A stretch of 24,000 nucleotides of DNA, taken from NCBI GenBank assembly GCA_036677505.1, contig JAVBWK010000021.1, positions 18,993 through 42,992 on the forward strand. Reading direction: 5' to 3'. The translations under genes were made by a program, and so were the position numbers. The stretch is from Erysipelotrichaceae bacterium. Lineage in GTDB: Bacteria > Bacillota_I > Bacilli_A > Erysipelotrichales > Erysipelotrichaceae. This document shows positions 2,333 through 19,329 of the stretch, piece after piece (the stretch's first letter is position 1; every line of letters starts with the position of its first letter). Below the pieces are notes generated by a model. It did no database searches. It was not told the DNA's origin and worked only from the letters and a program-made list of their open reading frames with translations.

Positions 2333-2596
2333 ATGATGTACTTTAATCAAGGATTTGACGGGTTCAGCCGTTGGGGCGGATGTTTCAACCGCGGCTACTT
2401 CGGCTATTTCGGACCGTGGACCATGATGATCGGATGGGGCATTGCGATATTGATCGTTGCACTGATTGTCTGGGCTGTGTTGAAAAAGAAAAGAGAAAAT
2501 GACCCCATTTTACTCAGCTTAAAAGAAAAATTCGTTCGCGGCGAAATCACGGAAGATGAATATCTGAGCAAAAAGAGAACGTTGAATCTGAAATAA
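2333..2596 (+). CDS. Small membrane protein with a Gly/aromatic-rich N-terminus and a C-terminal SHOCT domain
   Basis: GGAGAG lies upstream of ATG 2333. One TM segment (IGWGIAILIVALIVWAVL) is followed by LKEKFVRGEITEDEYLSKKRTL (SHOCT). Its stop overlaps the next start (TAATG at 2594..2598). Confidence 0.75.
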   Translation: MMYFNQGFDGFSRWGGCFNRGYFGYFGPWTMMIGWGIAILIVALIVWAVLKKKRENDPILLSLKEKFVRGEITEDEYLSKKRTLNLK

Positions 2597-5282: not shown

Positions 5283-5299
5283 AATCCTGTGTTTTTTTA
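5271..5299 (+). terminator. Rho-independent terminator of the two-component operon
   Basis: The stem ACACAGGA (5271..5278) pairs with TCCTGTGT (5285..5292) across a 6-nt loop, followed by T7 (5293..5299). It overlaps the kinase stop codon. Confidence 0.85.
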
Positions 5300-5380
5300 C
5301 TTTTTCTTAGGAACTTTATGATTGTTGACATATTAAGTAGTGAGCATCAATTATACAAAAATACCATCTCCATCCACCAA

Positions 5381-5401
5381 AAAAGGGCAATGCCCTTTTT
5401 A
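5381..5401. terminator. Short bidirectional hairpin terminator at the 3' end of the minus-strand operon
   Basis: AAAAAGGGCAATGCCCTTTTT has a GGGC/GCCC core flanked by A5 and T5, so it reads as hairpin plus U-run on either strand. It overlaps the amidohydrolase stop (5399..5401). Confidence 0.6.
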
Positions 5402-6658
5402 TACTCCATGAAATGCTTTATATTGCTCAACGGTCATCAGCGGTTTGAAATTGTCCTTGATGTTATTCAACACCTTGGGATCCGATAGCAGCTTTTCTAC
5501 TGCACCCAACGTGACCACCACCGGATATACTAACGCCTCCGTTGGATTGTCCATACAGAAATCCGCACCGTGCACCACGCCTTTACAACCAGAGAAACCA
5601 AACTGAACGGTCGGCACAAACAACGAGCAATCCCCAATGTCCCCCGCCGCAAACGATTTCTGATGGTTGACAATATTGTCTCCGACACATTCTGCCATCA
5701 GCGGACGCAAAACCTCACTCAACTCTTCGGACTGTTTGAGCGGGAAATATCCGGGTGTACTTTCAATTTCCACTTGCGCAAACAATGCTTTGGCACTGTG
5801 TGTGACCGTGTGATCGATCTTCTCACTGATCTGATTTAAGATATGGGTATCAATCGAACGGACATATCCCTCCAACACCGTCTTCGAAGGAACCGCATTG
5901 ACCGACTGACCGCCCAACGTACTCATCAGATGAACACGAATCAGATCCTCTTCCCTAAACGTTTCCCTCAACAATCCGATCGCAGTTTGAGCCAGAGCCA
6001 TCGCACTCAACGCATTGACTCCCAAATGAGGGGCCACTGCCGCATGCGAACTCTTACCGACAAACGTATACTTCTTATATACAAACCCGCTGAGCATCGA
6101 GTTGATCTCCATCTTCGGACGATCGGTCGCACCCATGGTATGACAGCTGATCAGCACATCGACATCACGGAATCGATCTTCAATGATCAGATTCTGCTTT
6201 CCGGAAAGTAATTTGATCTTGCCTTGATCGCGCAACTGCTTGCGTGCATCCAAATCCACAAATTCCTCCGCCGCAATGAAATAGCATGTAACCTTCCCTT
6301 GAGTGACGGTTTTTTTCGTAGCGAGGATTTTCATGACACCAGTCATGATCGCTGACTGTAAGTGATGACCGCACGCATGGGCTGCCCCATCTGACGCAGA
6401 TGCCATAAAGTGATGGGTCACGACCAGCGCATCCATCTCCGCAATCAGACCGATGTGCGGCTTTCCTTGTCCGATCGACACCGAAAAGCCGCTTAACCCA
6501 AAGTCCTCAATGTCAACATCTTCATTGTTAAAGAGATCGAGCAAATACGCTTTGGTCCGCTGCTCCTTAAACCCCAACTCCGGCATCGCAAACAAATCCT
6601 TCTCCCAAGCGATCAAATCAGACTGAAAGTCCGTAACGATCTTCATCCAATCCGACAT
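5399..6658 (-). CDS. M20-family metallo-amidohydrolase (AbgB/PM20D2-like subgroup)
   Basis: I chose the start at 6658 (MSDWMKIV...) because GGGAGGG lies upstream and it avoids a 120-nt overlap with the previous gene. Motifs are AAHACGHHLQSA (the HxCGH metal site of M20 amidohydrolases), IAAEE, and a dimerisation-domain-sized insert. Confidence 0.8.
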   Translation of the reverse strand: MSDWMKIVTDFQSDLIAWEKDLFAMPELGFKEQRTKAYLLDLFNNEDVDIEDFGLSGFSVSIGQGKPHIGLIAEMDALVVTHHFMASASDGAAHACGHHLQSAIMTGVMKILATKKTVTQGKVTCYFIAAEEFVDLDARKQLRDQGKIKLLSGKQNLIIEDRFRDVDVLISCHTMGATDRPKMEINSMLSGFVYKKYTFVGKSSHAAVAPHLGVNALSAMALAQTAIGLLRETFREEDLIRVHLMSTLGGQSVNAVPSKTVLEGYVRSIDTHILNQISEKIDHTVTHSAKALFAQVEIESTPGYFPLKQSEELSEVLRPLMAECVGDNIVNHQKSFAAGDIGDCSLFVPTVQFGFSGCKGVVHGADFCMDNPTEALVYPVVVTLGAVEKLLSDPKVLNNIKDNFKPLMTVEQYKAFHGV

Positions 6659-6659
6659 A

Positions 6660-7592
6660 TTATCCCTCCCTGTCCAGTATTCTCGCATTCTCAACGAACA
6701 CGTCGATAAACGCCTGCCGATCGACATCGACCAGCACTTTCGCATTGATTTTTCTTTTATCCGCCCAACTGCGCACATCGCCCACGGTTTTCCCGCGCGT
6801 CAGTTCCCCCTGCGTTTCCACATCTACAAACAATTCCACAGACGTGAAAAGATCAGGAGCCAACAGTTCTACGACCGGACACAAATCAAACAGCGGACTG
6901 CCCGGTTGTCCCAAATGTTTAGCATACTGCGAATAAAACTCCAACAGCTCATACGTCAGTCTGGACGCTTTGCCCTTGGTATTGAACCGATCGATCTCAG
7001 AGTGAAGAATCATCGCACGATGACACACTTCCAACCCACTCATCGTAATTTCTATACCTGAAGCAAACACGACCTTCGCCGCCTGCGGATCCACATAAAT
7101 ATTAAACTCTGCCTGCGAAGTGATATTCCCCGAATACAGCGAACCGCCCATCAGGGCAATTCGCTTTATTCTGTTTTTTATTGTTGGATACTTCATCAGA
7201 AGCATAGCCACATTGGTCAACGGACCGGTCGCAACGATCGTCACCTTATCTTGTTGAGCAGAGAGCGTCTGATACATCCACTCCACCGCATCCAACCCCG
7301 TCACCGAAAACTTCGATTCCGAAAGTATCGGACCGTCCATCCCGCTTTGCCCGTGAGCCACCGGCTGCACATATGTTTTGCCATCCAATGAACACGAAGC
7401 TCCGACGCTGACCTCAACTTTTCGATCAAGATACGAAAGAACCTTAAGCAGATTATCCGTCACTTTCTGAACCGTCTGATTTCCCGCCACCGTCGTACAT
7501 CCCAGCAGTTCAAACTGCTGCGGATGTGCTAACAGTGCACACAACGCAAAAATATCATCGTGCCCCGGATCACAGTCAAAAATGATTTTCAT
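6660..7592 (-). CDS. Inosine/uridine-preferring (IUNH-family) nucleoside hydrolase
   Basis: The start MKIIFDCDPGHDDIFAL contains the DxDxxxDD Ca2+/ribose-binding fingerprint (7554..7577), with AAAGGGGAG upstream. Length is about 310 aa. The TGPLTNVA motif is present. Confidence 0.88.
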   Translation of the reverse strand: MKIIFDCDPGHDDIFALCALLAHPQQFELLGCTTVAGNQTVQKVTDNLLKVLSYLDRKVEVSVGASCSLDGKTYVQPVAHGQSGMDGPILSESKFSVTGLDAVEWMYQTLSAQQDKVTIVATGPLTNVAMLLMKYPTIKNRIKRIALMGGSLYSGNITSQAEFNIYVDPQAAKVVFASGIEITMSGLEVCHRAMILHSEIDRFNTKGKASRLTYELLEFYSQYAKHLGQPGSPLFDLCPVVELLAPDLFTSVELFVDVETQGELTRGKTVGDVRSWADKRKINAKVLVDVDRQAFIDVFVENARILDREG

Positions 7593-7593
7593 C

Positions 7594-8517
7594 TTACTCC
7601 CCTTTGATCTTAGCGCGGCGATACTCAATGATCGAGTACGCTACGATACCGACAAACACCGCCACATACGGAATGGTCTGAATGATTTCGGATGGCAAAG
7701 CGAACAATTGCAAGGCATTGGAAAGTGCATCAAACATCCCAAACAGAAACGCCGTCATCGTCACCAGCCACACATTGCCCATACCCATCGCCTCCGCCGC
7801 CAAACCGATAAACCCGCGACCGGCCGTCATATTTTGGGTAAAGAACGAAAGATATCCCATCGACATATAGGCACCGCCCAACGCCGCCAGCAAACCGCTC
7901 AGCAACAACGCAATCGTCTTGATCTGCCTGACATTCACCCCAACGGACTCCGCCGCATGCGGATCTTTACCGACCGCCTTCATACGCAAGCCCAACGGCG
8001 TCTGATACATCAGCAGATACACCAAAATGACCGCCGCAAACATAATATACGCCAACACATTGTGACCCGAAAATATTCTTCCTAAAATCGGGATATTCTC
8101 CAATATCGGAATGTTGATTTTCGGAAGCGACCGCGCACTTAACGTTGCACTGGTCCCTTTGGAACCGGTGATGATAAACAACAGGAAAACCGTAAATGAA
8201 CTTGAAAATAAGTTGAGAGCAATCCCTCCCAAAATATTGTTCGTCTTCAATATCAACGTAAAATACGAAAGAATCGAAGCCATGATCATCCCTGCCAGAC
8301 ATGCTGCCAGCAAGCCGATCCACGCATTCTGCGTAAACGCACTGGTTACCGTACCGATAAACGCCGCCATCAGCATCATACCTTCAATCGCAATATTCGC
8401 AATGCCTGCACTATTGGCAATATACGCCGCCAACGCCGCAAACAATATCGGAACAACGACCCGGATGACCGTAAAGCCAAACTCCGGCGTCAGCATAATG
8501 TTCAATACATCAAGCAT
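7594..8517 (-). CDS. ABC transporter permease (BMP/CUT2 nucleoside-type importer, second permease)
   Basis: A 307-aa, highly hydrophobic polytopic protein. Its start overlaps the previous stop by 8 nt, with GGGAGG upstream. Its position and composition match NupQ/RbsC-like permeases. Confidence 0.85.
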   Translation of the reverse strand: MLDVLNIMLTPEFGFTVIRVVVPILFAALAAYIANSAGIANIAIEGMMLMAAFIGTVTSAFTQNAWIGLLAACLAGMIMASILSYFTLILKTNNILGGIALNLFSSSFTVFLLFIITGSKGTSATLSARSLPKINIPILENIPILGRIFSGHNVLAYIMFAAVILVYLLMYQTPLGLRMKAVGKDPHAAESVGVNVRQIKTIALLLSGLLAALGGAYMSMGYLSFFTQNMTAGRGFIGLAAEAMGMGNVWLVTMTAFLFGMFDALSNALQLFALPSEIIQTIPYVAVFVGIVAYSIIEYRRAKIKGE

Positions 8518-9565
8518 GTTGATCGCCTCCCTTCTTAATCAATGCACGTTCGTGATATTTTCTTAAGAAATACTGAGACGAAACAAACAGTACGACCACC
8601 GCTTCAACCACCGCCACGATTTCAACCGGAACATCGGTCGTACGCGCCATGATATCCGCTCCGGTACGCAAATAACTGATCGCAAAGGCCGCCGCAACGA
8701 CACCGACCGGATGATTACGTCCCAACATCGCCATCAGCGCTCCCGTAAACCCAAGGCCCGGCAGTGCCGACCATTGGAAACGATTGTACATGCCCAACAG
8801 TTCCACCGAAGAACCGACGCCTCCGATAAACCCGGAAATAAAGTGAACAACCAGAAACAGCCAGAAAGCATTCATCCCCGAATACTTCGCAAAATTCTTA
8901 TTCAACCCCGTCATCCGGATCGTATAGCCCAATTTGGTATGAAACAGCATCAGCTGTAACAAAACGACCGTAACGATCAGAATAATGATACCAAAGTGAA
9001 TACGGGTCGAAGGAATGATAACCGGCAGTTTTGCCGTTGCCTGAAACAAATGAGAAGCAACACCCGGCACATCCAACGCCTGCATGAAATTTTTAATGAT
9101 AAACAAGCCCAAACCAAACAAAATCGAATTCATCATCAGCGAAGTTACCAACTCATTGGTATTGTACTTCGCCTTAAAGAACCCCGGAATCAACGCTATC
9201 AAACCGCCGACCAAACCGGAAACCAAAATGGTCACAAACGGATGAATCAGCGAACTGCTCATCGTCTGGGTGGCCACTGCCGCCGTCACGACTCCGCAGA
9301 AATAGAAAATCCCCTCGGTACCCAAATTGAACAATTTTGTTCGAAATAACAGCGCCGTCGCCAAACCGGCAAAAGAGAGCGGAATCATCGTTTCAATGAC
9401 ATTGCCCATATAACGCACTTTGGTCAGCGGAGCAAACAACATTTTCGAAAAAGATTCCAACGGCTGAGCGCTGAAAACCAACAGCAAAATAAAGGTAAGA
9501 ACCAAGGCCAGCAAAACGGCTGCCGCCATTTTTACGACTTCGAAGATCCGCTCATTCGCTAACAT
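8510..9565 (-). CDS. ABC transporter permease (BMP/CUT2 nucleoside-type importer, first permease)
   Basis: A 351-aa polytopic membrane protein. Its start overlaps the ATPase stop by 7 nt, with AAGAGGG upstream. Confidence 0.85.
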   Translation of the reverse strand: MLANERIFEVVKMAAAVLLALVLTFILLLVFSAQPLESFSKMLFAPLTKVRYMGNVIETMIPLSFAGLATALLFRTKLFNLGTEGIFYFCGVVTAAVATQTMSSSLIHPFVTILVSGLVGGLIALIPGFFKAKYNTNELVTSLMMNSILFGLGLFIIKNFMQALDVPGVASHLFQATAKLPVIIPSTRIHFGIIILIVTVVLLQLMLFHTKLGYTIRMTGLNKNFAKYSGMNAFWLFLVVHFISGFIGGVGSSVELLGMYNRFQWSALPGLGFTGALMAMLGRNHPVGVVAAAFAISYLRTGADIMARTTDVPVEIVAVVEAVVVLFVSSQYFLRKYHERALIKKGGDQHA

Positions 9566-11118
9566 AAACTGGCCCTCTTTAAACTTTCCTCATCCTGACG
9601 TTTGACGCCAAGCATGTATAACCCCAATTCCATCTCATCGACATCTTTGGTACGATCGAAATGCGCCACGATTTCACCTTCATACATGACGATCAGCCGA
9701 TCGCTGACCTCCATGACCTCATTCAAATCCGCACTAACCAGCAAGATGGCCACATTGCGATTGCGCATGTCAATGAGCTGCTTATGAATAAATTCGGCAC
9801 TGCCGATATCGATACCCCGCGTCGGCTGCTCGGCAATCATGACCTTGGGATCGGTATTGGTCTCACGGGCAACGACCACTTTCTGAATGTTGCCTCCGGA
9901 AAGACTCTCGATTTTTGACTTGTAATTCTTTGTGCGGACACTGAACATTGAGATAAGCTGTGAAGCTACTTTTCCGATAGCCTTATCATTCATAAAAATC
10001 GGACCATTGATTTCCTTACGCCGATAATAACTGGAAATCAGATTCTCCGCTACGGTCGCCCCCTGCGCCACACCTTCCTTCATGCGGTCCTCCGGAATAT
10101 AAGCCAATCCGGCAATGCGCTTCTGATCGACAGAAAGTGAAGTAATATCCTGATCAAGGATAGACCACTTCCCACTGTTGATACCGGACAAACCGACCAA
10201 TCCCTGAACCAGTTCTGACTGGCCATTGCCCTGAACCCCGGCTACACCCAGGATTTCACCCTCGCGAATCGCAAAACTGATATCTTTTAAAATCGGAATA
10301 CCCTTTTTCGTCAGATTCAAACCTTCCACTTTGAAAGCTACCTCGTCGCGATCCGATTCCACTTTAAAATCATCATACGACAGAGAAACTTTACGCCCGA
10401 CAATGAGTTCCGTCATTTGTTCGATCGTAATTTCTTCATTGTTAAATGTCCCGCGACTCTCCCCATTTTGCATGATCGTGATCCGGTCGCTGATCGCCTT
10501 GACCTCATTGAGCTTATGGGAGATGAAGAGAATCGTGTGTCCCATATTTTTAAAGTGTTTCAGATTTTCGAAAAGAGCCTCGGTTTCCTGAGGAGTCAAT
10601 ACAGCGGTCGGCTCATCGAGAATGATGACCTCCGCATCGCGATACAGCGTTTTCAGTATTTCGACCTTTTGCTTGGCACTGACCGTCAAACGCGAGACAC
10701 GCTGTGTCACATCCATATCAAAATTATATTTCTTAGCCAGATTTTTCGTGACGTTGACCGCTTCATTTTTATTAAGAAAGAAACGCTTCTGCCTGGGCTC
10801 CATACCTAAAACGATATTCTCTGCCACCGAAAAATCATCGATCAGCATAAAATGCTGATGAACCATTCCGACCCCATTCAAAATGGCCTCCATGGAATTA
10901 TGAAACTGTGTCGGCTTTCCCCGATAAGTAATCGTTCCCGAAGAAGCATGTTCAATGCCGAAAATGATCTTCATCAGCGTTGACTTCCCTGCGCCGTTTT
11001 CCCCGACAATGGAATGAATTTCGCCTTTACGGAAATCAACACTGACATTGCGATTTGCCACGACACCGTTGGAATAAATTTTTGTGATATCCTTTAAATC
11101 AAGTATGATCTCACTCAT
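9559..11118 (-). CDS. ABC transporter ATP-binding protein with duplicated ATPase domains (CUT2 family)
   Basis: I prefer the start MSEIILDLKDITKIY at 11118. The N-terminal half has Walker A GENGAGKST, signature LSVSAKQKVEI and Walker B VIILDEPT. The C-terminal half has the degenerate GVQGNGQSE, LSGGNIQKV and MIAEQPTRGID, typical of sugar/nucleoside CUT2 ATPases. Confidence 0.9.
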   Translation of the reverse strand: MSEIILDLKDITKIYSNGVVANRNVSVDFRKGEIHSIVGENGAGKSTLMKIIFGIEHASSGTITYRGKPTQFHNSMEAILNGVGMVHQHFMLIDDFSVAENIVLGMEPRQKRFFLNKNEAVNVTKNLAKKYNFDMDVTQRVSRLTVSAKQKVEILKTLYRDAEVIILDEPTAVLTPQETEALFENLKHFKNMGHTILFISHKLNEVKAISDRITIMQNGESRGTFNNEEITIEQMTELIVGRKVSLSYDDFKVESDRDEVAFKVEGLNLTKKGIPILKDISFAIREGEILGVAGVQGNGQSELVQGLVGLSGINSGKWSILDQDITSLSVDQKRIAGLAYIPEDRMKEGVAQGATVAENLISSYYRRKEINGPIFMNDKAIGKVASQLISMFSVRTKNYKSKIESLSGGNIQKVVVARETNTDPKVMIAEQPTRGIDIGSAEFIHKQLIDMRNRNVAILLVSADLNEVMEVSDRLIVMYEGEIVAHFDRTKDVDEMELGLYMLGVKRQDEESLKRASLC

Positions 11119-11135
11119 AAAAACCCTTTCTATAA

Positions 11136-11169
11136 ACGAATGCCCTACACGTCTGTGTAGAGCATTCGT
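11136..11169 (-). promoter_or_regulatory. Intercistronic stem-loop between the binding-protein and ATPase genes
   Basis: A 15-bp stem with one mismatch (11136..11150 pairs with 11155..11169) closes a 4-nt loop. No clear U-tract follows on the minus strand; TTTATAGAAAGGG leads straight into the ATPase RBS. Confidence 0.6.
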
Positions 11170-11189
11170 AAAATTCATGTGATTTCTTC

Positions 11190-12269
11190 TTACGGTTGAA
11201 CGGAAGCTTTAATGGCGTTCCACTCGTCCGCCGTCAGAGTCAATGCGCTCTTAACAACGATTTCGCCGCTGATAACTTTGGCTTCATAAGAAGCAACGAC
11301 ATCACGGATAGCTGCCGGCAATGCATTGTAAACATCGTTCTTCGCCAATCCGACACCGTTTTCCTTGATACCTAAGATTTCAAGTTGTCCATACGGAAGG
11401 GTTCCGGCCAAGTGACGTTGAACGGCTTGCAGAATTGCCAAGTCAACATTCTTTGTACCTGAAGTCAGAATCTTCTCATATTTTGCCTGATCGTTTTTAA
11501 ACAGCAACGCCTGGTCAGCATCAACGCCCAACGCATAACGGTTAGCTTCAACCGCTGCATCAAACAAACCATTGCCCGTACCGCCGGCTGCATGGAAGAT
11601 AATGTCTGCGCCACCGGCATATTGGTTCAACGCAATTTCTTTACCCTTTGCAGGATCGCCGAAGTTATTGGCATATGCGATGAAAATCTTAACATCCGGA
11701 TTGACAGCCTGTGCACCTTGGATATATCCATACAAGAAGTCATTGATACCGGCAAATTCCATACCGCCGATGGCACCGATGATGTTATTGGTCGGATCGG
11801 AATACGGAAGTTCAGTCTTTGTGACCAAACCGGCAACCAAACCGGTCAGATAGCCCAGTTCATTGGCTTTATAGAACATGCCATAGGTATTCGGGTTTGA
11901 CGGAGGTGTATCCCAGTCAAAGTTGATAAACTTTTTGTCCGGGAATTGAGCGATGACTTTTTCAAATGTCGGGGAAGCTTCCCAGTTACCGCCGATGATG
12001 ATGTCATAATCGCCTTCAGCTGCATCTAAATAATAGTTTTCCCACTTGGATTGGTCACGACCCATTTCGATAATGGTCGTTTCGGCATCTTCGATTTCAG
12101 CTTCAATCAAAGCCATGCCATTGGCAGTTACATCAAAGTAGGATTGGTCGCCACGGAAAGGCACCAACAACGCCACTTTTACGCCTTCTTTTTCTTCTTC
12201 AGGAGCGGCACAGCCGACAAACCCGAAAACGATGAACAAGGCCAATAAAACCTTCAATAAATTCTTCAT
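11190..12269 (-). CDS. BMP-family (PnrA/Med/TmpC-like) ABC substrate-binding lipoprotein
   Basis: The signal peptide has a lipobox, LFIVFGFVG-C (Cys20 at 12210..12212). The body (VALLVP..GDQSY.D, GGNWE, FHAAGGTGNG, ALGVDADQ) matches basic-membrane-protein nucleoside-binding proteins. The start overlaps the upstream stop (ATGA), with GAGGAGGAAA upstream. Confidence 0.88.
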   Translation of the reverse strand: MKNLLKVLLALFIVFGFVGCAAPEEEKEGVKVALLVPFRGDQSYFDVTANGMALIEAEIEDAETTIIEMGRDQSKWENYYLDAAEGDYDIIIGGNWEASPTFEKVIAQFPDKKFINFDWDTPPSNPNTYGMFYKANELGYLTGLVAGLVTKTELPYSDPTNNIIGAIGGMEFAGINDFLYGYIQGAQAVNPDVKIFIAYANNFGDPAKGKEIALNQYAGGADIIFHAAGGTGNGLFDAAVEANRYALGVDADQALLFKNDQAKYEKILTSGTKNVDLAILQAVQRHLAGTLPYGQLEILGIKENGVGLAKNDVYNALPAAIRDVVASYEAKVISGEIVVKSALTLTADEWNAIKASVQP

Positions 12270-14377
12270 GTTTCCTCCTCGTTTATATTAAAATCAGCTC
12301 TGCTGATTCTAATCCCGGTAACAGATATCCCATGCTTACTGCCACTGATAAACCCTAAACAACCACAAACCGATATATCCTCAATGAATATTTTACTCAC
12401 AGTTTCTCCACTAACTTTGAATATAATTATAGGGGATACACCAGTAATGTGCAATGAAATTTGAGATGATTTCACATGTGAAATTTGTACTTTTGCAAGA
12501 TTCTGGAATATTTTGTTGATTCTCTGATTTATATGAAATTCATCCTCATTTATACGAGCGATTTCCACATATTTTTGAGCTCCTTGAACACCAAAACAGA
12601 CGGAACTGCCCGGTTGCCACTGTTTCGTTTCAATCTCGGCATCGACACCTTTCCATCGGACATCCCCAAAAAGCAACATCGCATTCTCATCTGATACACA
12701 AGTAATTCCTCCATCAACAACCCAATCGCCATTGACATGCGTGCAGCCGGCAATCTCACGATGATGTCCCATCATAAAAGTCACTCCGAAATCTTCGATG
12801 GGCAGCTTTGTGACATCCCAACAGAAGTCTGCATTGCCCGAAATCAAAATCGAATCGATCCACACATGTGTCAGAAATGTCCGATGAAGACTGGTCAATT
12901 CAACGCCCACTTCGACAATCAGTGAAAAATCACTGGGAATTTTCAATTCAAAGCTCTCAAAATTCTGGGTCAGTATGAATGCTTGCGATCGCGCCGTTTT
13001 GCCATTGATATCACGGACCAACAGACATGCTTCAAACTGCTCCTCTGTTCCTGCTTTGAGTCGTGTCTGTATCGTCTGTCCCGGCCATACAACAGGTGCC
13101 AGCGACGGTTCATAACGTCCGTCATGCAGTTCACTCGCCCTGAAATAGGTTTTCTTAATGACTTCAACTTTAGAATTTGAATAAGCTCCGTGAACATTGA
13201 TCTGTAAAGCTCTCTGACTTAACGCATCTTCCATGACTGCATTAACTATGGTTCCATGGAAGTATGGATGCCATCGTCCATAAAATCCATGCGTTGAGTA
13301 TGGCAGGCTGAAACTGAAATCATTGGGATGATTTAACCGTTCGTCGGTGAGCAACGGGTTGATTTTATTGGTCAATCGACCGAAGTACAGGGTTTGTTGC
13401 GTGGCATCAAGCATATTGATGCTCCCGAACAATCCCGAAGATAAAACCACATCATTGATCTTATTCACCCAAGGGACATATAAGCCGTCAATCCCTACCA
13501 AAGCTCCCATGATCGAACCAACATTGCCGACATTGCAATCCGTATCATACCCTGCATTGACACAAATCAACAAGGTATCTCTGAAATTGCCCTTGCCATG
13601 AACCATGGCCATCACCATGACCGCCATATTCGGAATGATCGGACATATACCGCCATAACAGGCATACGGAAAACTGTCCTGAATAAAGCGCAATGTATCT
13701 TCCCAGTCGTTCGACTGAGATGCATATGCGATGACTTCGCGTGCCACACGGACATATTCACTGGCCGGATCACAATAAGTCAGCGCTTTTTCGAGTACCT
13801 CAGTTATATTTTTATGTGTAAACGCCAGACTGATCGCAGCACTGACAAATGCGGCTCCCTCAACGGCCTCACCATCATGCGAGACCGAAGCTGCTTTTCT
13901 GGCCAGATCGACTGCCAATGCCACATCTTCATACGCTACATACGCCCAACCGTCACTGAAAATCTGCCCGCCGATCTGCTCGGAAAGTTCTTTGCCGTTG
14001 GTATGGTGACTGCCGCTTTCCGGCGCAGTCATCCCCATCTTTAAGTTATGATACATCGTATGTTCAGTCGAAACACCGACTCCGCCCCACCAGAAAAAAC
14101 CGTGCTCCTGCGCAATCACATTGAGCATGGTATCGGCCATGTCCTGAGCCGTAACTTCGCTTGCTTGTTTATCCAATAAAACCCGCGTAAAGTATAGCGG
14201 ACCGTTGGTATCATCATCGGCCCCAAACACCGAATAATCCACCACAAAATCCTCGATTTTACCGAAGGATTCCTTGATGTTCTGTGATGACCAGTTTTCA
14301 ACCGGAGCTCCCAATCGTACACCGATCACCTTTCCAAGCCAAGCGGCACGGATATCTTCCAACCAATTCGACATCAA
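12266..14377 (-). CDS. ADP-ribosylglycohydrolase-family domain (residues ~1-335) fused to a ~350-aa beta-rich C-terminal region (LamG/DUF1080-like jelly-roll suspected)
   Basis: ARH hallmarks are GKVIGVRLGAPVENW, the metal ligands GADDDTNGP (D54-T57), and NAGYDTDCNVGNVGSIMGALVG (D278/D280). The C-terminal half has alternating beta-strand patterns and a HVNGDWVVDGGITC...LLFGD..WKGVDAEIE signature. The start overlaps the esterase stop (ATGA). Confidence 0.8.
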   Translation of the reverse strand: MMSNWLEDIRAAWLGKVIGVRLGAPVENWSSQNIKESFGKIEDFVVDYSVFGADDDTNGPLYFTRVLLDKQASEVTAQDMADTMLNVIAQEHGFFWWGGVGVSTEHTMYHNLKMGMTAPESGSHHTNGKELSEQIGGQIFSDGWAYVAYEDVALAVDLARKAASVSHDGEAVEGAAFVSAAISLAFTHKNITEVLEKALTYCDPASEYVRVAREVIAYASQSNDWEDTLRFIQDSFPYACYGGICPIIPNMAVMVMAMVHGKGNFRDTLLICVNAGYDTDCNVGNVGSIMGALVGIDGLYVPWVNKINDVVLSSGLFGSINMLDATQQTLYFGRLTNKINPLLTDERLNHPNDFSFSLPYSTHGFYGRWHPYFHGTIVNAVMEDALSQRALQINVHGAYSNSKVEVIKKTYFRASELHDGRYEPSLAPVVWPGQTIQTRLKAGTEEQFEACLLVRDINGKTARSQAFILTQNFESFELKIPSDFSLIVEVGVELTSLHRTFLTHVWIDSILISGNADFCWDVTKLPIEDFGVTFMMGHHREIAGCTHVNGDWVVDGGITCVSDENAMLLFGDVRWKGVDAEIETKQWQPGSSVCFGVQGAQKYVEIARINEDEFHINQRINKIFQNLAKVQISHVKSSQISLHITGVSPIIIFKVSGETVSKIFIEDISVCGCLGFISGSKHGISVTGIRISRADFNINEEET

Positions 14378-15258
14378 CGGACTCCAAACACGAAATCAGC
14401 AATATCCTTGGTTCGCTCATCATCGAAAAACACCATTTCCGCATGATTGGCATCATCAATATAACCCAGATCCACAACACATCCGGCATCCGTCAATGCT
14501 TTCGCAAAATCCCGCGTCTGATGCCACGGAACCATGGAGTCTGACTTTCCATGTCTGAGGAAAAACGGAAACTCCGTTTTCTTGATATGATTTTGCGGAG
14601 AAAGCAACTTCGCTTTGTCGATGTTATCTTTAAAAGGTCCCCCGATCAGCCAACTGGCCAGCGAATCATCCTCCGTCATCGGCCAGAAATTATCATACCC
14701 CAACTGTTCCGTCTGATCATCCATCGTCAGAAAGTCGTACACGCCATAATAACCGATGACCCCTGCCAGAGATACTTTCGCAGATCCATATCCCAGTGAT
14801 TTATCCTCAAACTCACCGCTTTGCATAGTCAATGCGGTTAGAGCGACCAAATGGGCACCCGCAGACTCACCCCACAGAAATATTTTTTTTGTATCGATCG
14901 GAAAATGCTCGGGATTGACACTCAAATAGCGGATCGCCGTCTTGATATCAAATAACTGCTGAGGAAACGGTTTCTCTAACGCCAAGGTGTAACTGACACA
15001 TGCAACCGCGATGCCGTGACTGATCGGATGAGTCATCCACTCAACAAACTTCGAACGGTGATGACCGCTGATCCACCCGCCGCCATGCACGGCAATGATC
15101 AGCGGAAAAGGACCTTCGCCTTCAGGTAAATACAAATCCAGTGTCTTGGTCCCCTTTTCCATATAACATACATCTAAATGTTTGCGCTCGAATGCATCCA
15201 AATGGATTTCTCCTAAGTCAAACGTCAGAAAATCTTTCACTTTTTGCGTAATTTCCAT
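14374..15258 (-). CDS. Alpha/beta-hydrolase esterase (hormone-sensitive-lipase/Aes-like family)
   Basis: The oxyanion motif is AVHGGGW and the nucleophile elbow is GESAGAH (Ser132 at 14863..14865). The distal acid and His lie in GKSDSMVP...DDANHAE. AAGGAG sits 6 nt before the ATG, and only 12 nt separate it from the activase stop. Confidence 0.85.
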   Translation of the reverse strand: MEITQKVKDFLTFDLGEIHLDAFERKHLDVCYMEKGTKTLDLYLPEGEGPFPLIIAVHGGGWISGHHRSKFVEWMTHPISHGIAVACVSYTLALEKPFPQQLFDIKTAIRYLSVNPEHFPIDTKKIFLWGESAGAHLVALTALTMQSGEFEDKSLGYGSAKVSLAGVIGYYGVYDFLTMDDQTEQLGYDNFWPMTEDDSLASWLIGGPFKDNIDKAKLLSPQNHIKKTEFPFFLRHGKSDSMVPWHQTRDFAKALTDAGCVVDLGYIDDANHAEMVFFDDERTKDIADFVFGVR

Positions 15259-15270
15259 ACGAATCTCCTT

Positions 15271-16110
15271 TTATACGCTGACGACTTCGCCAGCCCCCAA
15301 ACTCAAAGCATAGCGCTTATATTCCTCAAAGGTATCGATATCCAACGAAGCACTTCCCAAAATATCCAGTCCCTCTTGCCTTACACCGTACGGACGGTAA
15401 CGGATCAGCTTGATCCGCGCCCGATCTTTAACGATGTTGACAACATCCGCAATCGTTTTGCGGTTTTGTTCATCAAACCGCGGCAGACAGACGATCCGCA
15501 CTTCCGTCAGTTTTCCGATAGAAAGTAAATATGCCAGATTGTCGAGAACCGCCTCATACTCATGGCCGGTAAGTTCTTTATGAAATCTTGGATCGGTCGC
15601 TTTGACATCCAACATGACCCCATCACATACGCTCATCAGCTCAGGGTATTGAACAAACCGTGCAAACCCGTTGGAATCAATCAGCGTCGACATTCCCATC
15701 GCTTTCACCTTCTCAAACAACTCTCTGAGAAACTCCGGGTGCATCATGCATTCACCGCCGCTGACCGTAATCCCTCGCACAAAAGCCGATACTTCTTTCA
15801 GTTTCTCGATGACATCATCACTCGACATCGTATTGATTTTCGGACTGGCCAGATGCGGACACACCTTGATACACGTATCGCACTGCTCGCAAACCGTTTC
15901 ATCCCAAACCACTTTTCCGTCTTTCAACGACAATGCTTTTGACGGACAGGTAGGCACGCAGATACCGCAATGGATACACATATTAATCGTCTCCGGATTA
16001 TGGCAATACCAGCATCGGAAAGGACAGGACTGCAAAAAGATGGCCATCCGGTTTCCGGGGCCATCTACGTTAGAGAAAGGAATGATTCTGTTGACCGGAG
16101 CAAACAGCAT
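15271..16110 (-). CDS. yjjW: Glycyl-radical enzyme activating enzyme (radical SAM, YjjW-type)
   Basis: It carries DGPGNR (the activase motif) and CPFRCWYC, a CX3CX2C motif at 16003..16026. Two ferredoxin-like motifs, CIHCGICVPTCP and CEQCDTCIKVCP, lie at 15856..15978, and SGGEC is a SAM-binding motif. The start codon shares one base with the upstream stop (TAATG at 16108..16112). Confidence 0.88.
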   Translation of the reverse strand: MLFAPVNRIIPFSNVDGPGNRMAIFLQSCPFRCWYCHNPETINMCIHCGICVPTCPSKALSLKDGKVVWDETVCEQCDTCIKVCPHLASPKINTMSSDDVIEKLKEVSAFVRGITVSGGECMMHPEFLRELFEKVKAMGMSTLIDSNGFARFVQYPELMSVCDGVMLDVKATDPRFHKELTGHEYEAVLDNLAYLLSIGKLTEVRIVCLPRFDEQNRKTIADVVNIVKDRARIKLIRYRPYGVRQEGLDILGSASLDIDTFEEYKRYALSLGAGEVVSV

Positions 16111-17606
16111 TATTGGGTGACCTTGCGATCGAGGGCTTTCGCCAAATCACGCGATCCCTGACCCAATACGGTCGCACCGTTTAAGACGGCTTCTTTGCGA
16201 TCCAGTTTTTCCAGTTCACTGCGCTTGACCAGATAACCGGTGACGCGCACGACATCATTGTTTTCACAGTAAGCCGAGAAATAGCGCATACCGGCATTCA
16301 TTGCTCCCTTGATGATATCCAACAGCGATTCCGGTGTATTCTTCCACGTTTCTTCAAACCGGAAAATATCACCGATGCCTGTGGGGAAATATTTGTGGAA
16401 GCGGCCGGAATGAGCGATCTGCTTATGGATTTCCGGTTCACTGCCGATCGGAATACGGGCTCCCGGCGATGAATCCAAACCATCTCTTTCAATGCCGACC
16501 TGGGCATGCAGCCAGTAACGGTCACTGCTGTTTTCACTGTATGGCGCTTTATGTAAAGATACCAAATGATCCAGATGAGCAATGATCTCTTCGCCCAAAT
16601 CATCGGCAGATGTATTGTTTCCATATCCTTTTTTCTTATCTTCGATGCCTAACAGCGTATTGACACACTCGGCCAAACCAACCAGGCCAAACATACCGAC
16701 AAAGTTCTCCTGTTTGATAAATCCTTCTTTGACTAAGAAATTACTCTTAAAGAATGCGGCATCTTCAACCATAAAACGGATGCGCAAATCCATAAACTCG
16801 GTCATCAGATCGACATACTTCGGTAACAGTACATTTTTGAAATGTTCAATCGATTGAGCTTCTTTGGCGATGTTTGCCAAGCGCAGACGCGGCAGGGTAT
16901 ATCCGCCTCCGGCAATGCGCAAACCGTTATAGCAGCTGGCCAATCCGTAATTCTTTTCGCCAAACTCAGCCGAGAACATTTTATGATTGGCAAAGCTTGG
17001 TTTCGCCGTAGAAAGCATAACCTGGGCACATAGAGTAGCGAACTCATCGCCGGTCAGTTGGGGATCATAGCGGACGGTCATGTTGGGAACTGCGGTTTGT
17101 AAACGGAGGGTTTCTTTTAAGATGATCCGACCGGCCTTCGTATCTTTCGGACCGATGTCCGCATGGACAAAGGAATCGCACAAAACACGATCGATATGCA
17201 ACAAGAATAAGCCGATCGCCTTAGTGGCTTCCTTTTCATCGACGATAAAAGGTTCAAGCAGTTCGTCCAGATTTCCTAAAAATACCGGAAAGGACGATAC
17301 GGAGGGAACGTGGCGATACATGATCATCAAAGCGTTGGTCGCTTCCCATATATCCGTCGGCGGGTCCAACTGTAAAAATTTACTGCCGTTTTTCATCAAG
17401 ACGGAATAATCTGGTAGGATATACCTAGGACGGAAAGGCAGTGCGCCTTCAAACAAATCACAAATCATTCCGGCTTCTTTAGCCTTGATAAACTCCGGAT
17501 TATACGGCAGAGTCGTATCGGTATTTTCGCCCAGTTTAGCCAGATTGATAAATTGCTGATGAAATGACAGAGTTGTATCGGTTACGATTTCATACGCTGT
17601 AGACAT
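16110..17606 (-). CDS. yjjI: YjjI-family (DUF3029) glycyl-radical enzyme, function unknown
   Basis: A 498-aa soluble protein translationally coupled to the activase. It has a C-terminal glycyl-radical fingerprint, VVRVTGYLV (R454-Y458 at 16233..16247), about 40 residues from the end. Its size matches the ~500-aa YjjI family rather than ~800-aa PFL-type GREs. GGAGGG lies upstream of the ATG. Confidence 0.75.
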   Translation of the reverse strand: MSTAYEIVTDTTLSFHQQFINLAKLGENTDTTLPYNPEFIKAKEAGMICDLFEGALPFRPRYILPDYSVLMKNGSKFLQLDPPTDIWEATNALMIMYRHVPSVSSFPVFLGNLDELLEPFIVDEKEATKAIGLFLLHIDRVLCDSFVHADIGPKDTKAGRIILKETLRLQTAVPNMTVRYDPQLTGDEFATLCAQVMLSTAKPSFANHKMFSAEFGEKNYGLASCYNGLRIAGGGYTLPRLRLANIAKEAQSIEHFKNVLLPKYVDLMTEFMDLRIRFMVEDAAFFKSNFLVKEGFIKQENFVGMFGLVGLAECVNTLLGIEDKKKGYGNNTSADDLGEEIIAHLDHLVSLHKAPYSENSSDRYWLHAQVGIERDGLDSSPGARIPIGSEPEIHKQIAHSGRFHKYFPTGIGDIFRFEETWKNTPESLLDIIKGAMNAGMRYFSAYCENNDVVRVTGYLVKRSELEKLDRKEAVLNGATVLGQGSRDLAKALDRKVTQ

Positions 17607-17715
17607 AATAGTAAACCCTCCTAATTTATATCATTATATAACAAAATCTTTCAAAATGCACAAACTTTCCGTTGTTTTTCCGCTATAATAAAAGTATCAG
17701 CCCAGGAGGTTTATC
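17607..17715. promoter_or_regulatory. 109-bp divergent control region between the GRE operon and the sulfatase gene
   Basis: Minus-strand candidate: TTGAAA (17654..17649), 18-nt spacer, TATAAA (17630..17625). Plus-strand candidate: TATAAT (17684..17689) with a poor -35. The RBSs are GGAGGG (17621..17616, minus) and AGGAGG (17704..17709, plus). Confidence 0.4.
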
Positions 17716-19329
17716 ATGGAACAAAAACCCAATATTTTAATCATAACGACCGATCAGCAGCGCTTTGATGCCATCGGTGCCGTCGATCCGTTGATATTTT
17801 CTCCGAATCTTGACCAACTGGCTAAAGAAGGTGCGCTTTACCGACATACGTACACCCCCAATCCGGTGTGTGTGCCGGCCAGGCAGAACATTCTGACCGG
17901 ACTGACCGCACGTCATCACGGATTTGATGACAACGACTTTGCCCGACACCGTTATTCCCCTTATTATTTACCGAAACTGCCTCAGATTCTTTCGGATGCC
18001 GGATATGATACAATTGCCATCGGAAAACTTCATTTTGAGCCAAATCGCAGACACGACGGATTCCATCGCTACTTTATGATCGATGAGGTTCCGCGTCACC
18101 GCGAAGAAGATGATTATGCCTTATATTTGAAAGACAACGGCTATGAGCACATTTCTGCGCTACACGGTGTCCGCGATCCGCTGTATATGATGCCTCAGCG
18201 ATCGGTGGTGGATAAGAAACATCACTGTTCGACCTGGGTGGCAGATCTGACGATCGAACAGCTGAAAATCAACCGCGGGAAACGACCGTTTTTCTTCTGG
18301 GCCGGATTTGTTCACCCGCATCCGCCGATGGATGTCAGTGAAGAGTTTGCGGATATATATAAGGATAAGCAGCTTCCCGAGCCGGTCAAATCAAAGACTT
18401 CGGTCAGTTGGCTTGCACAGGAAAACCGGAATATCGTCGATTATCCCAATGAGGATGTGTTCCGCAGGTTCAGGGAACTGTATTTTGCTTCGATCGCGCA
18501 GGTAGATGAGCAAATCGGACGGATCATCGGTACTCTGAAGGAATTGAATCTCTACGATCAGACCTGTATCATTTTCTGCTCGGATCACGGAGAAATGCTT
18601 GGTGATATGGATACATTCCAAAAATTCTTACCTTATGACGGTTCTTCCCGAGTGCCCTTTATCATCCGCTATCCCGAGAAAATCAAACCCGGCACGACGG
18701 TGGATGCATTGATTAATCTCAATGACATCATGCCGACTTTACTTGATCTTGCAAGTGTTGAGTACCCGGCACCTTTTGAGTTGGCCGGTAAATCCGTTTT
18801 TGATTTGAATGAGCGAGAAGAAACCTTTATTGAACACGGCCGTTATGCACGGCGCTGGATAAGCATAGTCACTCAGACACATAAATATGCTTATTACTAT
18901 GGCGGCGGTCGCGAAGAACTGTTTGATTTGATCCGTGATCCCAAAGAACAGGTCAATCTGATTGAAGCGAATGCTTCCCGTGTTGAACATATTAGGACGT
19001 TATTACGTATAAAGTGCATCGATTGGGAATGCCGCTTCGGATTGGAAGATCATATTGAAAATCATGAGTTCAAACGGTTTGAGATTCCTGAGCTTCGTCC
19101 CTTTGGCGGTACCGGTGAACTGATATTCCCAAAACGGATCATGGACCCCATCGAGAAAAGCAAGATTCAGCCTCTAAGAGAGCAAATCGTCAATGTCGTA
19201 AAGGATGAGCCGGTAATACGTTTGAAAGATATCGATTTCTCCTACATGCTAAAGACACATCAGCTTACCGAAGAAGATGTCGCATGGATCATAGAACAAG
19301 ATAATCTGAACAAAGAAAGGATCGGATAA
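17716..19329 (+). CDS. Cys-type sulfatase (formylglycine-dependent), no signal peptide
   Basis: N-terminal NILIITTDQQRFD, and the formylglycine (FGly) motif C-V-P-A-R followed by QNILTG (17869..17883). GKLHF and CSDHGEMLGD are sulfatase metal and active-site motifs. The N-terminus MEQKPNILII is not a signal sequence. Confidence 0.88.
   Translation: MEQKPNILIITTDQQRFDAIGAVDPLIFSPNLDQLAKEGALYRHTYTPNPVCVPARQNILTGLTARHHGFDDNDFARHRYSPYYLPKLPQILSDAGYDTIAIGKLHFEPNRRHDGFHRYFMIDEVPRHREEDDYALYLKDNGYEHISALHGVRDPLYMMPQRSVVDKKHHCSTWVADLTIEQLKINRGKRPFFFWAGFVHPHPPMDVSEEFADIYKDKQLPEPVKSKTSVSWLAQENRNIVDYPNEDVFRRFRELYFASIAQVDEQIGRIIGTLKELNLYDQTCIIFCSDHGEMLGDMDTFQKFLPYDGSSRVPFIIRYPEKIKPGTTVDALINLNDIMPTLLDLASVEYPAPFELAGKSVFDLNEREETFIEHGRYARRWISIVTQTHKYAYYYGGGREELFDLIRDPKEQVNLIEANASRVEHIRTLLRIKCIDWECRFGLEDHIENHEFKRFEIPELRPFGGTGELIFPKRIMDPIEKSKIQPLREQIVNVVKDEPVIRLKDIDFSYMLKTHQLTEEDVAWIIEQDNLNKERIG

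Follow-up and report, generated by a model that had tools for sequence, protein, structure and literature searches.

A candidate operon joining the YjjI/YjjW glycyl radical pair to nucleoside-type import and ribosyl-bond hydrolysis in an Erysipelotrichaceae bacterium

Introduction

YjjI, an oxygen-sensitive glycyl radical enzyme paired with the radical S-adenosylmethionine (SAM) activating enzyme YjjW, was still termed an uncharacterised putative glycyl radical enzyme in a preprint of August 2026 (bioRxiv 10.64898/2026.08.13.742689). Gly465 of the Escherichia coli protein is labelled by a radical probe in living cells (bioRxiv 10.64898/2026.08.13.742689), which indirectly indicates that the glycyl radical forms there, and yjjI is induced anaerobically in Yersinia (PMC3792023). 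Our literature search found no paper that gives YjjI a function or ties it to nucleoside metabolism. Here we analyse a YjjI/YjjW pair at the head of ten packed genes in a 24,000-nucleotide (nt) stretch of DNA from an Erysipelotrichaceae bacterium (GenBank assembly GCA_036677505.1, contig JAVBWK010000021.1, positions 18,993 to 42,992), referred to as the window. Judged from sequence, the ten genes are best explained as one transcription unit made of two separable modules. The recurring company of YjjI across distant bacteria makes nucleoside or ribose breakdown a testable function for this enzyme.

Among other glycyl radical enzymes, structures of PflD and YbiW were released in 2024, that of YbiW with 1,5-anhydroglucitol 6-phosphate bound. 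In anaerobes, the modified nucleoside queuosine is salvaged by QueK, an IUNH-family hydrolase, and QueL, a radical SAM lyase. We found no paper uniting an ARH-family hydrolase, a nucleoside hydrolase and an ATP-binding cassette (ABC) transporter, the combination that accompanies YjjI and YjjW in the window.

Organization of the operon

Ten co-oriented genes on the minus strand (17606..5399) are tightly packed in the order YjjI, YjjW, esterase, ARH fusion, BMP-type binding protein, ATPase, permease 1, permease 2, IUNH nucleoside hydrolase and M20 amidohydrolase (Table 1). A first-pass annotation, made from the letters of the DNA alone, had described this packing, and it stands after rereading the open reading frame (ORF) list and every junction. 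All ten of its family assignments hold in profile searches, and catalytic motifs are intact throughout the operon enzymes.

The yjjW start codon overlaps the yjjI stop codon (TAATG), and yjjW is followed by a gap of 12 nt that contains an AAGGAG ribosome-binding site; no terminator lies between yjjW and the esterase gene. The ARH/BMP junction reads ATGA, the ATPase and permease 1 genes overlap by 7 nt and the two permease genes by 8 nt, and gaps of 1 nt lie at 7593 and 6659. Of the junctions given in the first-pass annotation, only the one between the esterase and ARH genes needs correction: it was listed as ATGA, whereas the sequence reads TTGATG, so that either a TGA stop overlaps an ATG by 1 nt or a TTG start creates a 4-nt overlap. 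The ARH protein most likely begins at the ATG, as in its relatives, and would then have 702 residues. In the mechanical ORF list, the ATPase, IUNH and M20 genes begin too far upstream; the shorter starts chosen in the annotation match the gene calls in a close relative (L002; L numbers denote loci throughout), with which the ATPase start at 11118 is consistent.

Upstream of yjjI, the divergent control region contains back-to-back promoter candidates, with one perfect TATAAT per direction, and the yjjI ribosome-binding site GGAGGG. An intrinsic terminator lies directly 3' of the M20 stop codon. Within the operon, promoter-like and terminator-like matches are no more numerous than shuffled sequence would give, and none is convincing; a split of the operon by such signals was rejected on this basis. 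An Rfam search gave no family at threshold anywhere in the window, and control by a riboswitch or known RNA element was likewise rejected.

The only real spacer of the operon, between the BMP and ATPase genes, holds a stem-loop that the first-pass annotation had also seen. This hairpin is stable (-28 kcal/mol, z = -6.5; 0 of 200 shuffles fold equally well), and its core is kept in L007 and L008 despite diverged flanks. It is probably an mRNA-stabilising or attenuating element, which would raise the output of the binding protein relative to the membrane parts. The DNA of the window is ~80-82% identical to contigs from metagenome-assembled genomes (MAGs) of uncultured groundwater Bacillota, HGW-Firmicutes-10 and -19 (L003/L004), and to two JGI metagenome contigs (L002/L087).

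Genomic context of YjjI and YjjW

The context of YjjI was surveyed in 80 species-representative genomes, in which the protein is 57-95% identical to that of the window, and in a further 103 YjjI loci from a degenerate-motif scan of metagenome contigs, which is not similarity-ranked and reached clades down to 42-47% identity. A search with E. coli YjjI gave Enterobacterales only. The family is compact: a set of 1.84 billion representative proteins contains ~20 full-length clusters of it at 50% identity.

YjjW adjoins YjjI in 71 of the 80 species loci. A BMP gene is found in 26 of them, on the same strand in 24 of the 26 and no more than four genes downstream in 22. Tandem-domain ABC ATPases of the window type occur in 27 loci, ARH genes in 8, and IUNH and PfkB kinase genes in 6 each. 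Many of the neighbouring BMP proteins are only ~30% identical to the window BMP, which argues against simple conservation of one locus. Where at least 5 kb is available on both sides, nucleoside or ribose partners are present in 16 of 33 loci.

From these data we distinguish about eleven different arrangements that join YjjI/YjjW to nucleoside or ribose genes. Besides the window type (1), these are ribokinase-YjjI-YjjW-ARH and following genes (2; L085/L006); ARH-BMP-ABC-IUNH-YjjI-YjjW continued by an M28 metallopeptidase, an unassigned gene and an adenosine-deaminase-like gene (3; L016, L027); IUNH-ARH divergent from YjjI-YjjW-BMP-ABC-phosphomutase (4; L062, L071, L115, L210); ARH-IUNH-esterase-BMP-ABC divergent from YjjI-YjjW (5; L121); an ARH or deaminase-like gene followed by IUNH-BMP-ABC-YjjI-YjjW in a deep clade (6; L202, L166, L105, L171); LacI-YjjI-IUNH and a nucleoside deoxyribosyltransferase family gene (7; L148, L187); YjjI-YjjW-BMP-(patatin)-ABC at an FtsK/M16 site in Erysipelotrichaceae (8); ABC genes divergent from YjjI-YjjW in Oscillospiraceae, once with DeoD and DeoC (9; L074); a pseudouridine-kinase-like PfkB gene adjoining YjjI/YjjW (10; L034, L037, L192); and, in Enterobacterales, deoCABD divergent from yjjI-yjjW (11; E. 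coli, Edwardsiella). The first-pass annotation had pointed to the E. coli case (b4379-b4380), which is confirmed, the two gene sets being divergent. YjjI of the deep clades (L202/L166 and L148/L187) is 42-47% identical to the window protein.

A NupC-family transporter gene also lies beside yjjW (L091, L108, L211) or, at an unrelated site, directly upstream of yjjI and co-oriented with it (L092). Because NupC and the BMP-ABC importers are unrelated families for the same substrate class, synteny cannot explain the association. The enrichment of nucleoside and ribosyl genes around YjjI, on which the first-pass annotation had staked its proposal, is strong and specific and is found in many independent arrangements and in two phyla, represented by Bacillota and Enterobacterales.

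Several neighbours are side observations. In L148 (5010-9193) and L187, the deoxyribosyltransferase family gene (PF05014, 92 bits) is found without a directly adjacent YjjW and in one lineage only. In L202, the series ARH-IUNH-BMP-ABC-YjjI-YjjW is closed by a GH3 glycoside hydrolase gene (10700-12973), next to yjjW and in the same orientation. In two Holdemania species (L034:12479-13309 and L037), the gene immediately behind yjjW is of the aminoglycoside 3-N-acetyltransferase family. L098 carries two tandem YjjI-YjjW pairs, 45% and 57% identical to the window YjjI, and one Holdemania MAG (L022, L082) has two separate YjjI loci; such copies in a single genome suggest that members of the family differ in substrate. 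A 574-residue NCBI protein (P0244), with 100% identity to E. coli YjjI across 91% of the query, combines PF11230 with the DeoC domain PF01791 on a contig of 2.9 kb; the two genes diverge in E. coli, so that this fusion probably stems from an error of gene calling or assembly.

FtsK, RNase J, MiaB, RNase Y, YmdB, SSB and M16 genes were rejected as partners, being housekeeping flanks of one Erysipelotrichaceae syntenic site. A Pfam census at partnerless loci, covering 132 neighbours, gave no family more than five times and no rival theme. This census bears on the possibility that YjjI/YjjW is functionally unconnected to genes 3-10, having landed by chance between the sulfatase and esterase genes or being merely co-regulated under anaerobic conditions. 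The two gene sets are indeed separable, each being found alone, and about half of the YjjI loci are without such partners. A chance placement would nevertheless have to account for some eleven arrangements, at YjjI identities down to 42%, in two phyla and with two unrelated nucleoside-transporter families. The BMP gene is mostly co-oriented and immediately downstream, no other family recurs, and in the window only the short gap with its ribosome-binding site, and no terminator, separates the pair from gene 3, so that the two are coupled. We consider an unconnected pair a most improbable reading.

The contexts of genes 3-10 were sampled via the ARH fusion, not via YjjI. In L084, a sulfatase gene, accompanied by an anSME-like gene, is divergent from esterase-ARH-BMP-ATPase-permease-permease-IUNH-M20, the order of window genes 3-10, without YjjI/YjjW. 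L086 has PfkB-M20-esterase-ARH-BMP-ABC-IUNH, again without the pair, and L088 has ARH-BMP-ABC-IUNH only. These contexts define a core of ARH, BMP-ABC importer and IUNH, to which the kinase, the deacylases, the sulfatase and the YjjI/YjjW pair are optional additions; YjjI/YjjW, for its part, often stands alone. The single indivisible pathway of the first-pass annotation does not survive these occurrences, and its account of the operon, right as to the ten genes, omitted the divergent sulfatase gene (17716-19329) that is part of the module. As a side observation, genes of a class I ribonucleotide reductase (nrdA/nrdB type; 3383-6952) precede the pair-less module of L086 in divergent orientation, in the position held by YjjI/YjjW or the sulfatase in other loci; this is probably coincidence.

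In L085, a Dethiosulfatibacter MAG, and likewise in L006, sulfatase-anSME-LacI is divergent from ribokinase-YjjI-YjjW-ARH-BMP-ABC-IUNH-M20-like. The kinase is a true ribokinase (TIGR02152, 306.6 bits, above cutoff), and its place at the start of these sister operons suggests that ribose is probably phosphorylated in the ordinary way. The earlier remark that no ribokinase is present holds for the window and fails for the sister operons.

Importer and hydrolases

The operon encodes a complete importer set, made up of the lipoprotein (PF02608), the ATPase with its paired nucleotide-binding domains and both BPD_transp_2 permeases. The best structural relatives of the BMP protein are Lbp (7x0r, 106.5 bits) and TmpC/PnrA (2fqw, 104.4 bits), along with the lipoproteins 6y9u and 6ya3, and the blocks N-x-F-x-D, AGGTGNG and GVDxDQ are conserved. 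Similarity to PnrA/TmpC-type lipoproteins (104-106 bits) and these conserved blocks suggest that the BMP protein may bind nucleosides. The best NCBIfam names are those of a putative vitamin B6 ABC transporter (NF047927-NF047930); membership was rejected, as all four proteins score below cutoff (59/400, 394/670, 152/400 and 161/465 bits).

The ARH protein matches PF03747 at residues 11-299 of about 702 (169.5 bits, cutoff 26.2), and its metal-ligand motifs are intact (DDDT at 54, DTDC at 278). A hydrolase domain of ~340 residues is followed by ~360 residues of beta-sandwich/lectin-like structure, a layout shared in length (~700 residues) by at least 2,537 homologues. In the predicted model (pLDDT 92), Foldseek matches the N-terminal domain to ARH3, MJ1187 and DraG (target-normalised TM-score 0.64-0.77) and the C-terminal part to galactocerebrosidase. 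For the C-terminal region only the fold comparison is informative, with zero Pfam matches even at E = 1. The DraG and Tri1 equivalogs are not reached (29.1 bits, cutoff 337, and 21.9 bits, cutoff 490).

IUNH matches PF01156 with 289 bits (cutoff 34.2) and carries the calcium/ribose motif DCDPGHDD at residue 6. Its nearest relative is E. coli RihA (3g5i, 259.6 bits); the RihA equivalog score of 311.7 bits is below the cutoff of 433 and does not imply RihA specificity. The M20 protein scores 170 bits against TIGR01891 (cutoff 153.75), a model of the N-acyl-amino-acid, hippurate and IAA-amino-acid hydrolase type, and has YxeP, ILL2 and HmrA as distant structural relatives. The esterase has HGGG and GESAG motifs, and its closest solved relatives are carbohydrate acetyl esterases (PDB 6nkf, 6mly, 6xyc).

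The divergent sulfatase has the motif C52-V-P-A-R and no signal peptide, and scores 335.6 bits against an arylsulfatase model, below the cutoff of 481. Its gene is divergent at the same position in L084, which has no YjjI/YjjW, and in L085, L006-L008 and L207, and by this distribution it belongs to the hydrolase/importer module. A Cys-type sulfatase requires a formylglycine maturase. No anSME-like radical SAM gene lies within the 24-kb window; an anSME-like radical SAM/SPASM gene adjoins the sulfatase gene in L084 and L085.

Esterases accompany YjjI/YjjW in unrelated forms, three by our count, among them BD-FAE in the window and patatin-like YjjU in E. coli, Edwardsiella and L024/L048, and a metallopeptidase recurs as M20 in the window and M28 in L016/L027. 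The acylated ribosyl compound proposed in the first-pass annotation gains some support from this recurrence. In L024 (13540-14406) and L048 (14034-14903), a patatin plus DUF6363 protein, 28-29% identical to YjjU, is encoded between the BMP and ATPase genes, mirroring yjjU near yjjW in E. coli and Edwardsiella.

A cargo other than a nucleoside (vitamin B6, riboflavin, a furanoside or an oligosaccharide), with ARH and IUNH acting as general furanosidases, has several facts in its favour. For all four transporter proteins, a putative B6 ABC model is the best NCBIfam match, and the BMP family includes the riboflavin binder TpN38(b) of Treponema pallidum (4iil, 70 bits). The lectin-like C-terminal domains of the ARH protein and the carbohydrate acetyl esterases related to the esterase would also suit a sugar. 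In Caldanaerobius polysaccharolyticus, an ARH-lectin fusion homologue (L083:10001-12139) is found without BMP or IUNH in a sugar cluster with GH172, GH20, a ROK kinase, a NagB-like protein and two GFO/IDH/MocA oxidoreductases; the ARH-lectin fusion family may include non-nucleoside furanosidases. On the other hand, the B6 scores are far under their cutoffs, and the BMP protein scores higher against lipoproteins of the nucleoside-binding PnrA/TmpC type, whose blocks it keeps. IUNH is RihA-like with the full ribose-binding Asp cluster, and the ribokinase, adenosine-deaminase-like, DeoD/DeoC and NupC partners of YjjI indicate nucleosides. We regard a non-nucleoside cargo as improbable.

The same hydrolases could serve detoxification of, or resistance to, nucleoside-type antibiotics (peptidyl-, acyl- or sulfamoyl-nucleosides) instead of nutrient scavenging. 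Amidase, esterase and SGSH_C (sulfamidase-type) sulfatase domains are called in the module, and enzymes of these three kinds fit decorations on nucleoside antibiotics; the acetyltransferase-family gene after yjjW in Holdemania would be in keeping with such a role. Resistance would, however, call for the opposite of a dedicated and presumably high-affinity importer whose binding protein is presumably made in quantity. Partners such as ribokinase, phosphomutase and deaminase-like proteins speak for use of the products, and the module is widespread in Bacillota of gut, rumen and groundwater. A resistance function therefore seems very remote.

Modified tRNA nucleosides, O-acetyl-ADP-ribose, ribosyl-adenosine from poly(ADP-ribose) and sulfamoyl or peptidyl nucleoside antibiotics were each tried as the cargo and set aside, since each fits some of the enzymes only.

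YjjI and YjjW

The first protein of the operon belongs to the YjjI family, as the first-pass annotation had assumed: it scores 670.8 bits against TIGR04040 (cutoff 498.3) and 684.8 bits against PF11230, covering profile positions 1-484 of 485. The glycyl radical motif RVTG457Y and the thiyl-radical Cys225 within ASCYNG are recognizable, and RVTG457Y and SC225YN are invariant over 44 sequences, that of E. coli YjjI among them. In pyruvate formate-lyase, the aligned counterpart of Cys225 is the second residue of the Cys-Cys pair, the first being Ser224 in YjjI; this replacement excludes pyruvate formate-lyase chemistry. The residue at Cys+2 is Asn227 rather than Glu. A Glu at this position is typical of dehydratase- and decarboxylase-type glycyl radical enzymes.

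An AlphaFold model of YjjI (pLDDT 87, pTM 0.88) shows the ten-stranded barrel fold with finger loop known from NrdD. In a Foldseek search, the first 31 ranks go without exception to class III ribonucleotide reductases (E 8.5e-15 to 2.7e-12; TM-score on query 0.62-0.73), followed by PflD, YbiW, pyruvate formate-lyase and dehydratases at E 3e-12 or weaker. Class III ribonucleotide reductase is thus the closest fold to predicted YjjI, without membership. Membership itself was rejected: the NRDD model PF13597 covers residues 243-350 only and scores 22.1 bits, below the cutoff of 26.2, a weak profile alignment gives no counterpart of the second catalytic Cys on beta-strand A, and the Zn-Cys4 site is absent. 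There is no Cys in residues 449-470, and the alignments list no conserved Cys after C314.

YjjW scores 353.6 bits against TIGR04041 (cutoff 250.2) and contains CX3CX2C together with two ferredoxin-like Cys clusters. Against other activase models it reaches 164 bits for the HypD activase, 152 bits for PFLE_PFLC and 45-67 bits for NrdG. The halves of the radical system hence differ in kin, YjjI pointing by fold to NrdD and YjjW to dehydratase-type activases.

YjjI might act on the released aglycone, by radical decarboxylation or C-C or C-N cleavage of a modified base, while ribose is handled by ribokinase. IUNH and ARH would release an aglycone in the same operon, the ribokinase of L006/L085 provides a conventional route for ribose, and the further hydrolase genes (esterase, amidase, sulfatase) imply a substrate with unusual decorations. 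Against this, YjjI/YjjW occurs with plain transporters and no special hydrolases (NupC-yjjI-yjjW in L092; YjjI-YjjW-BMP-ABC in many Erysipelotrichaceae), and the genes that adjoin it concern the sugar part (deoCABD, DeoD/DeoC, deoxyribosyltransferase family). Asn227 takes the place of the Glu of known decarboxylase-type enzymes, and the predicted fold is nearest ribonucleotide reductase. Action on the base is in our view rather improbable, and its arylacetate-type decarboxylation, which the first-pass annotation had speculated on, finds no support in a ribonucleotide reductase-like fold with no Glu at Cys+2.

Proposed pathway

We propose that genes 3-10 and the divergent sulfatase gene (module B) would import a nucleoside-like compound through the BMP/PnrA-type lipoprotein and the ABC transporter. 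This compound would bear O-acyl, N-acyl and sulfate groups and two ribosyl-type bonds. In the cytoplasm, the acetyl-esterase-type enzyme, the M20 enzyme and the Cys-type sulfatase would strip the O-acyl, N-acyl and sulfate groups; the ARH3-like enzyme would cut the ribosyl-X bond and the RihA-like IUNH the N-glycosidic bond, giving free ribose and aglycone. YjjI and YjjW (module A), placed at the operon head and presumably translationally coupled, would carry out a radical step on the ribosyl part under anoxia, be it nucleoside, ribose or ribokinase-made ribose 5-phosphate. As a whole, with one transcription unit, import and stripping by module B and a radical step by module A, this is the best explanation we can offer, and our confidence in it slightly exceeds our doubt.

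Its parts differ in strength. The operon layout, the protein families, the intact motifs, the two-module composition and the repeated link of YjjI/YjjW to nucleoside and ribose genes across phyla are observed directly. We are rather confident that YjjI is functionally tied to nucleoside or ribose metabolism. That it acts on the ribosyl part falls a little short of an even call. The preferred chemistry would resemble the first half of ribonucleotide reduction: a hydrogen atom next to a ribose hydroxyl would be abstracted and the hydroxyl lost by dehydration or formate-dependent reduction, giving a deoxy-pentose cleavable by DeoC-type enzymes. Such deoxygenation is favoured by the NrdD-like fold, the recurring ribokinase, the deo genes and the deoxyribosyl-specific family beside YjjI, and we nonetheless rate it as doubtful. 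In its most specific form, YjjI would be a minimal ribonucleotide-reductase-like enzyme that removes the ribose 2'-hydroxyl outside the nucleotide pool, by reduction or dehydration and at the level of the nucleoside, free ribose or ribose 5-phosphate, in an operon that scavenges a sulfated, acylated and doubly ribosylated nucleoside conjugate; this detailed version is unlikely.

A number of observations speak against the proposal. About half of the well-flanked YjjI/YjjW loci are without a nearby nucleoside gene, and a clade 50-65% identical to E. coli YjjI has partners in 0 of 22 loci, many of them short-flanked. Part of the Erysipelotrichaceae BMP signal comes from a single syntenic site, FtsK-[YjjI-YjjW-BMP-ABC]-M16, at which three species retain YjjI-YjjW without the transporter. 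The structural lead of ribonucleotide reductases is modest (1e-14 versus 3e-12) and may partly reflect similar size; in sequence, YjjI is equally distant from ribonucleotide reductases and from PflD, YbiW and pyruvate formate-lyase. An hhalign alignment of YjjI and NrdD, with a probability of only 8%, puts no Cys opposite Cys175 of E. coli NrdD, and the nearest non-family activases of YjjW are of the dehydratase type, not NrdG. The window contains no enzyme that handles deoxy-pentoses. A nucleoside substrate would be broken down by the co-encoded IUNH, which favours ribose or ribose phosphate as the substrate of YjjI. Lastly, we know of no compound that requires sulfatase, esterase, amidase, ARH and IUNH together.

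All parts of the system are known families; what appears to be new is their combination, the modular picture and the cross-phylum association. The search for the YjjI substrate narrows to a list that can be purchased (ribonucleosides, ribose, ribose phosphates and deoxy forms, with or without formate), and E. coli, Edwardsiella and Holdemania are tractable organisms for YjjI genetics. If ribose deoxygenation is true, it would be a new reaction class for glycyl radical enzymes and a new anaerobic pentose route in bacteria of gut, rumen and groundwater, leading from ribonucleosides to DeoC-type cleavage into glyceraldehyde 3-phosphate and acetaldehyde and bypassing the pentose phosphate pathway. 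Apart from YjjI, the ARH-BMP-ABC-IUNH core, to which sulfatase, esterase and amidase may be added, suggests that many Bacillota scavenge a class of decorated ribosyl compounds that has gone unrecognised.

Flanking genes

The HbpS-like gene behind the sulfatase gene is found in L002-L004, L007 and L087; conservation restricted to the clade of the window leaves its link to the system uncertain. A response regulator/histidine kinase pair (3232-5282, plus strand) converges on the end of the operon and occupies the same place in L087. ORFs at 431-2035 (minus), 2596-3222 (plus) and 23151-23456 (minus), coding for 534, 208 and 101 residues, have no Pfam match.

Table 1 Features of the YjjI/YjjW operon and its surroundings (positions within the window; aa, residues)
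Feature	Position	Strand	Evidence and remarks
Intrinsic terminator	5379..5398	-	GGGC-ATT-GCCC stem, A/T-pair extension, T-run; read directly
M20-family amidohydrolase, 419 aa	5399..6658	-	TIGR01891
IUNH-family nucleoside N-ribohydrolase, 310 aa	6660..7592	-	PF01156
ABC permease 2, BPD_transp_2	7594..8517	-	PF02653, 106.7 bits
ABC permease 1, BPD_transp_2	8510..9565	-	PF02653, 116 bits
ABC ATPase, two fused nucleotide-binding domains, CUT2 sugar/nucleoside type, 519 aa	9559..11118	-	PF00005 twice
Stable hairpin	11136..11169	-	in BMP/ATPase spacer
BMP/PnrA-type lipoprotein substrate-binding protein	11190..12269	-	PF02608, 159 bits; lipobox FVGC
ARH3/MJ1187-like ribosyl hydrolase fused to beta-sandwich/lectin-like domains	12266..14374	-	PF03747
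Alpha/beta-fold esterase (BD-FAE / hormone-sensitive-lipase type)	14374..15258	-	PF20434, 173 bits
YjjW-family radical SAM activating enzyme, 279 aa	15271..16110	-	TIGR04041
YjjI-family glycyl radical enzyme, 498 aa	16110..17606	-	TIGR04040, PF11230
Divergent control region, 109 nt	17607..17715		between yjjI and sulfatase gene; read directly
Cytoplasmic Cys-type sulfatase, divergent	17716..19329	+	PF00884, 182.7 bits; PF16347 (SGSH_C)
HbpS-like gene	19331..19780	+	PF03928, 87.7 bits; 1 nt after sulfatase gene

Comparison with known systems

Like YjjI, NrdD is a glycyl radical enzyme, and it acts on the ribose ring; the thiyl Cys aligns between the two and an "...LPR" block after the finger loop is common to both. 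YjjI is ~150-200 residues shorter, without the ATP-cone, the C-terminal Zn-Cys4 site or a counterpart of Cys175, and YjjW differs from NrdG in two extra Fe-S clusters, resembling dehydratase-type activases. The next-best structural matches to YjjI, E. coli PflD and YbiW (8yjo, 8id7), are glycyl radical enzymes that act on the sugar phosphate 1,5-anhydroglucitol 6-phosphate. They are PFL-like (PF02901) proteins of ~765-810 residues, whereas YjjI forms a separate compact family.

Queuosine salvage by QueK and QueL shares with the window the pairing of an IUNH-family hydrolase and a radical enzyme; QueL is a radical SAM and not a glycyl radical enzyme, the transporter is another one, and ARH, esterase, amidase and sulfatase are absent. 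The importer has the same component set and the same conserved binding-site blocks as PnrA/TmpC-type systems (T. pallidum 2fqw; 6y9u/6ya3; Borrelia BmpA/BmpD), although the window BMP is only ~30% identical to their binding proteins. The genes that surround the importer (ARH, IUNH, esterase, amidase, sulfatase) suggest that its cargo is a decorated nucleoside and not a plain one.

The E. coli operon yegT-yegU-yegV combines a transporter of the nucleoside:H+ symporter family (PF03825, 613 bits) with an ARH-family hydrolase and a PfkB kinase. The logic of import, ribosyl-bond cleavage and phosphorylation is that of the ARH-BMP-ABC-IUNH(+PfkB) core. In contrast to the window, the transporter belongs to another family and there is neither IUNH nor a radical enzyme; YegU is 20% identical to the window ARH domain (E 2e-6) and is without the beta-sandwich extension.

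The E. coli yjjI-yjjW locus also holds yjjV (TatD-like) and, unlike the window, has no ABC importer, ARH, IUNH, M20 or sulfatase. Its partners are phosphorylases, a mutase and an aldolase, with NupC in relatives, arranged divergently or convergently and not in one operon. YjjI and YjjW are 40% and 39% identical between the two loci, with identical glycyl motif and Cys loop, and the E. coli pair, like that of the window, adjoins genes of nucleoside (and deoxyribose) catabolism with an esterase gene, the patatin-like yjjU, nearby.

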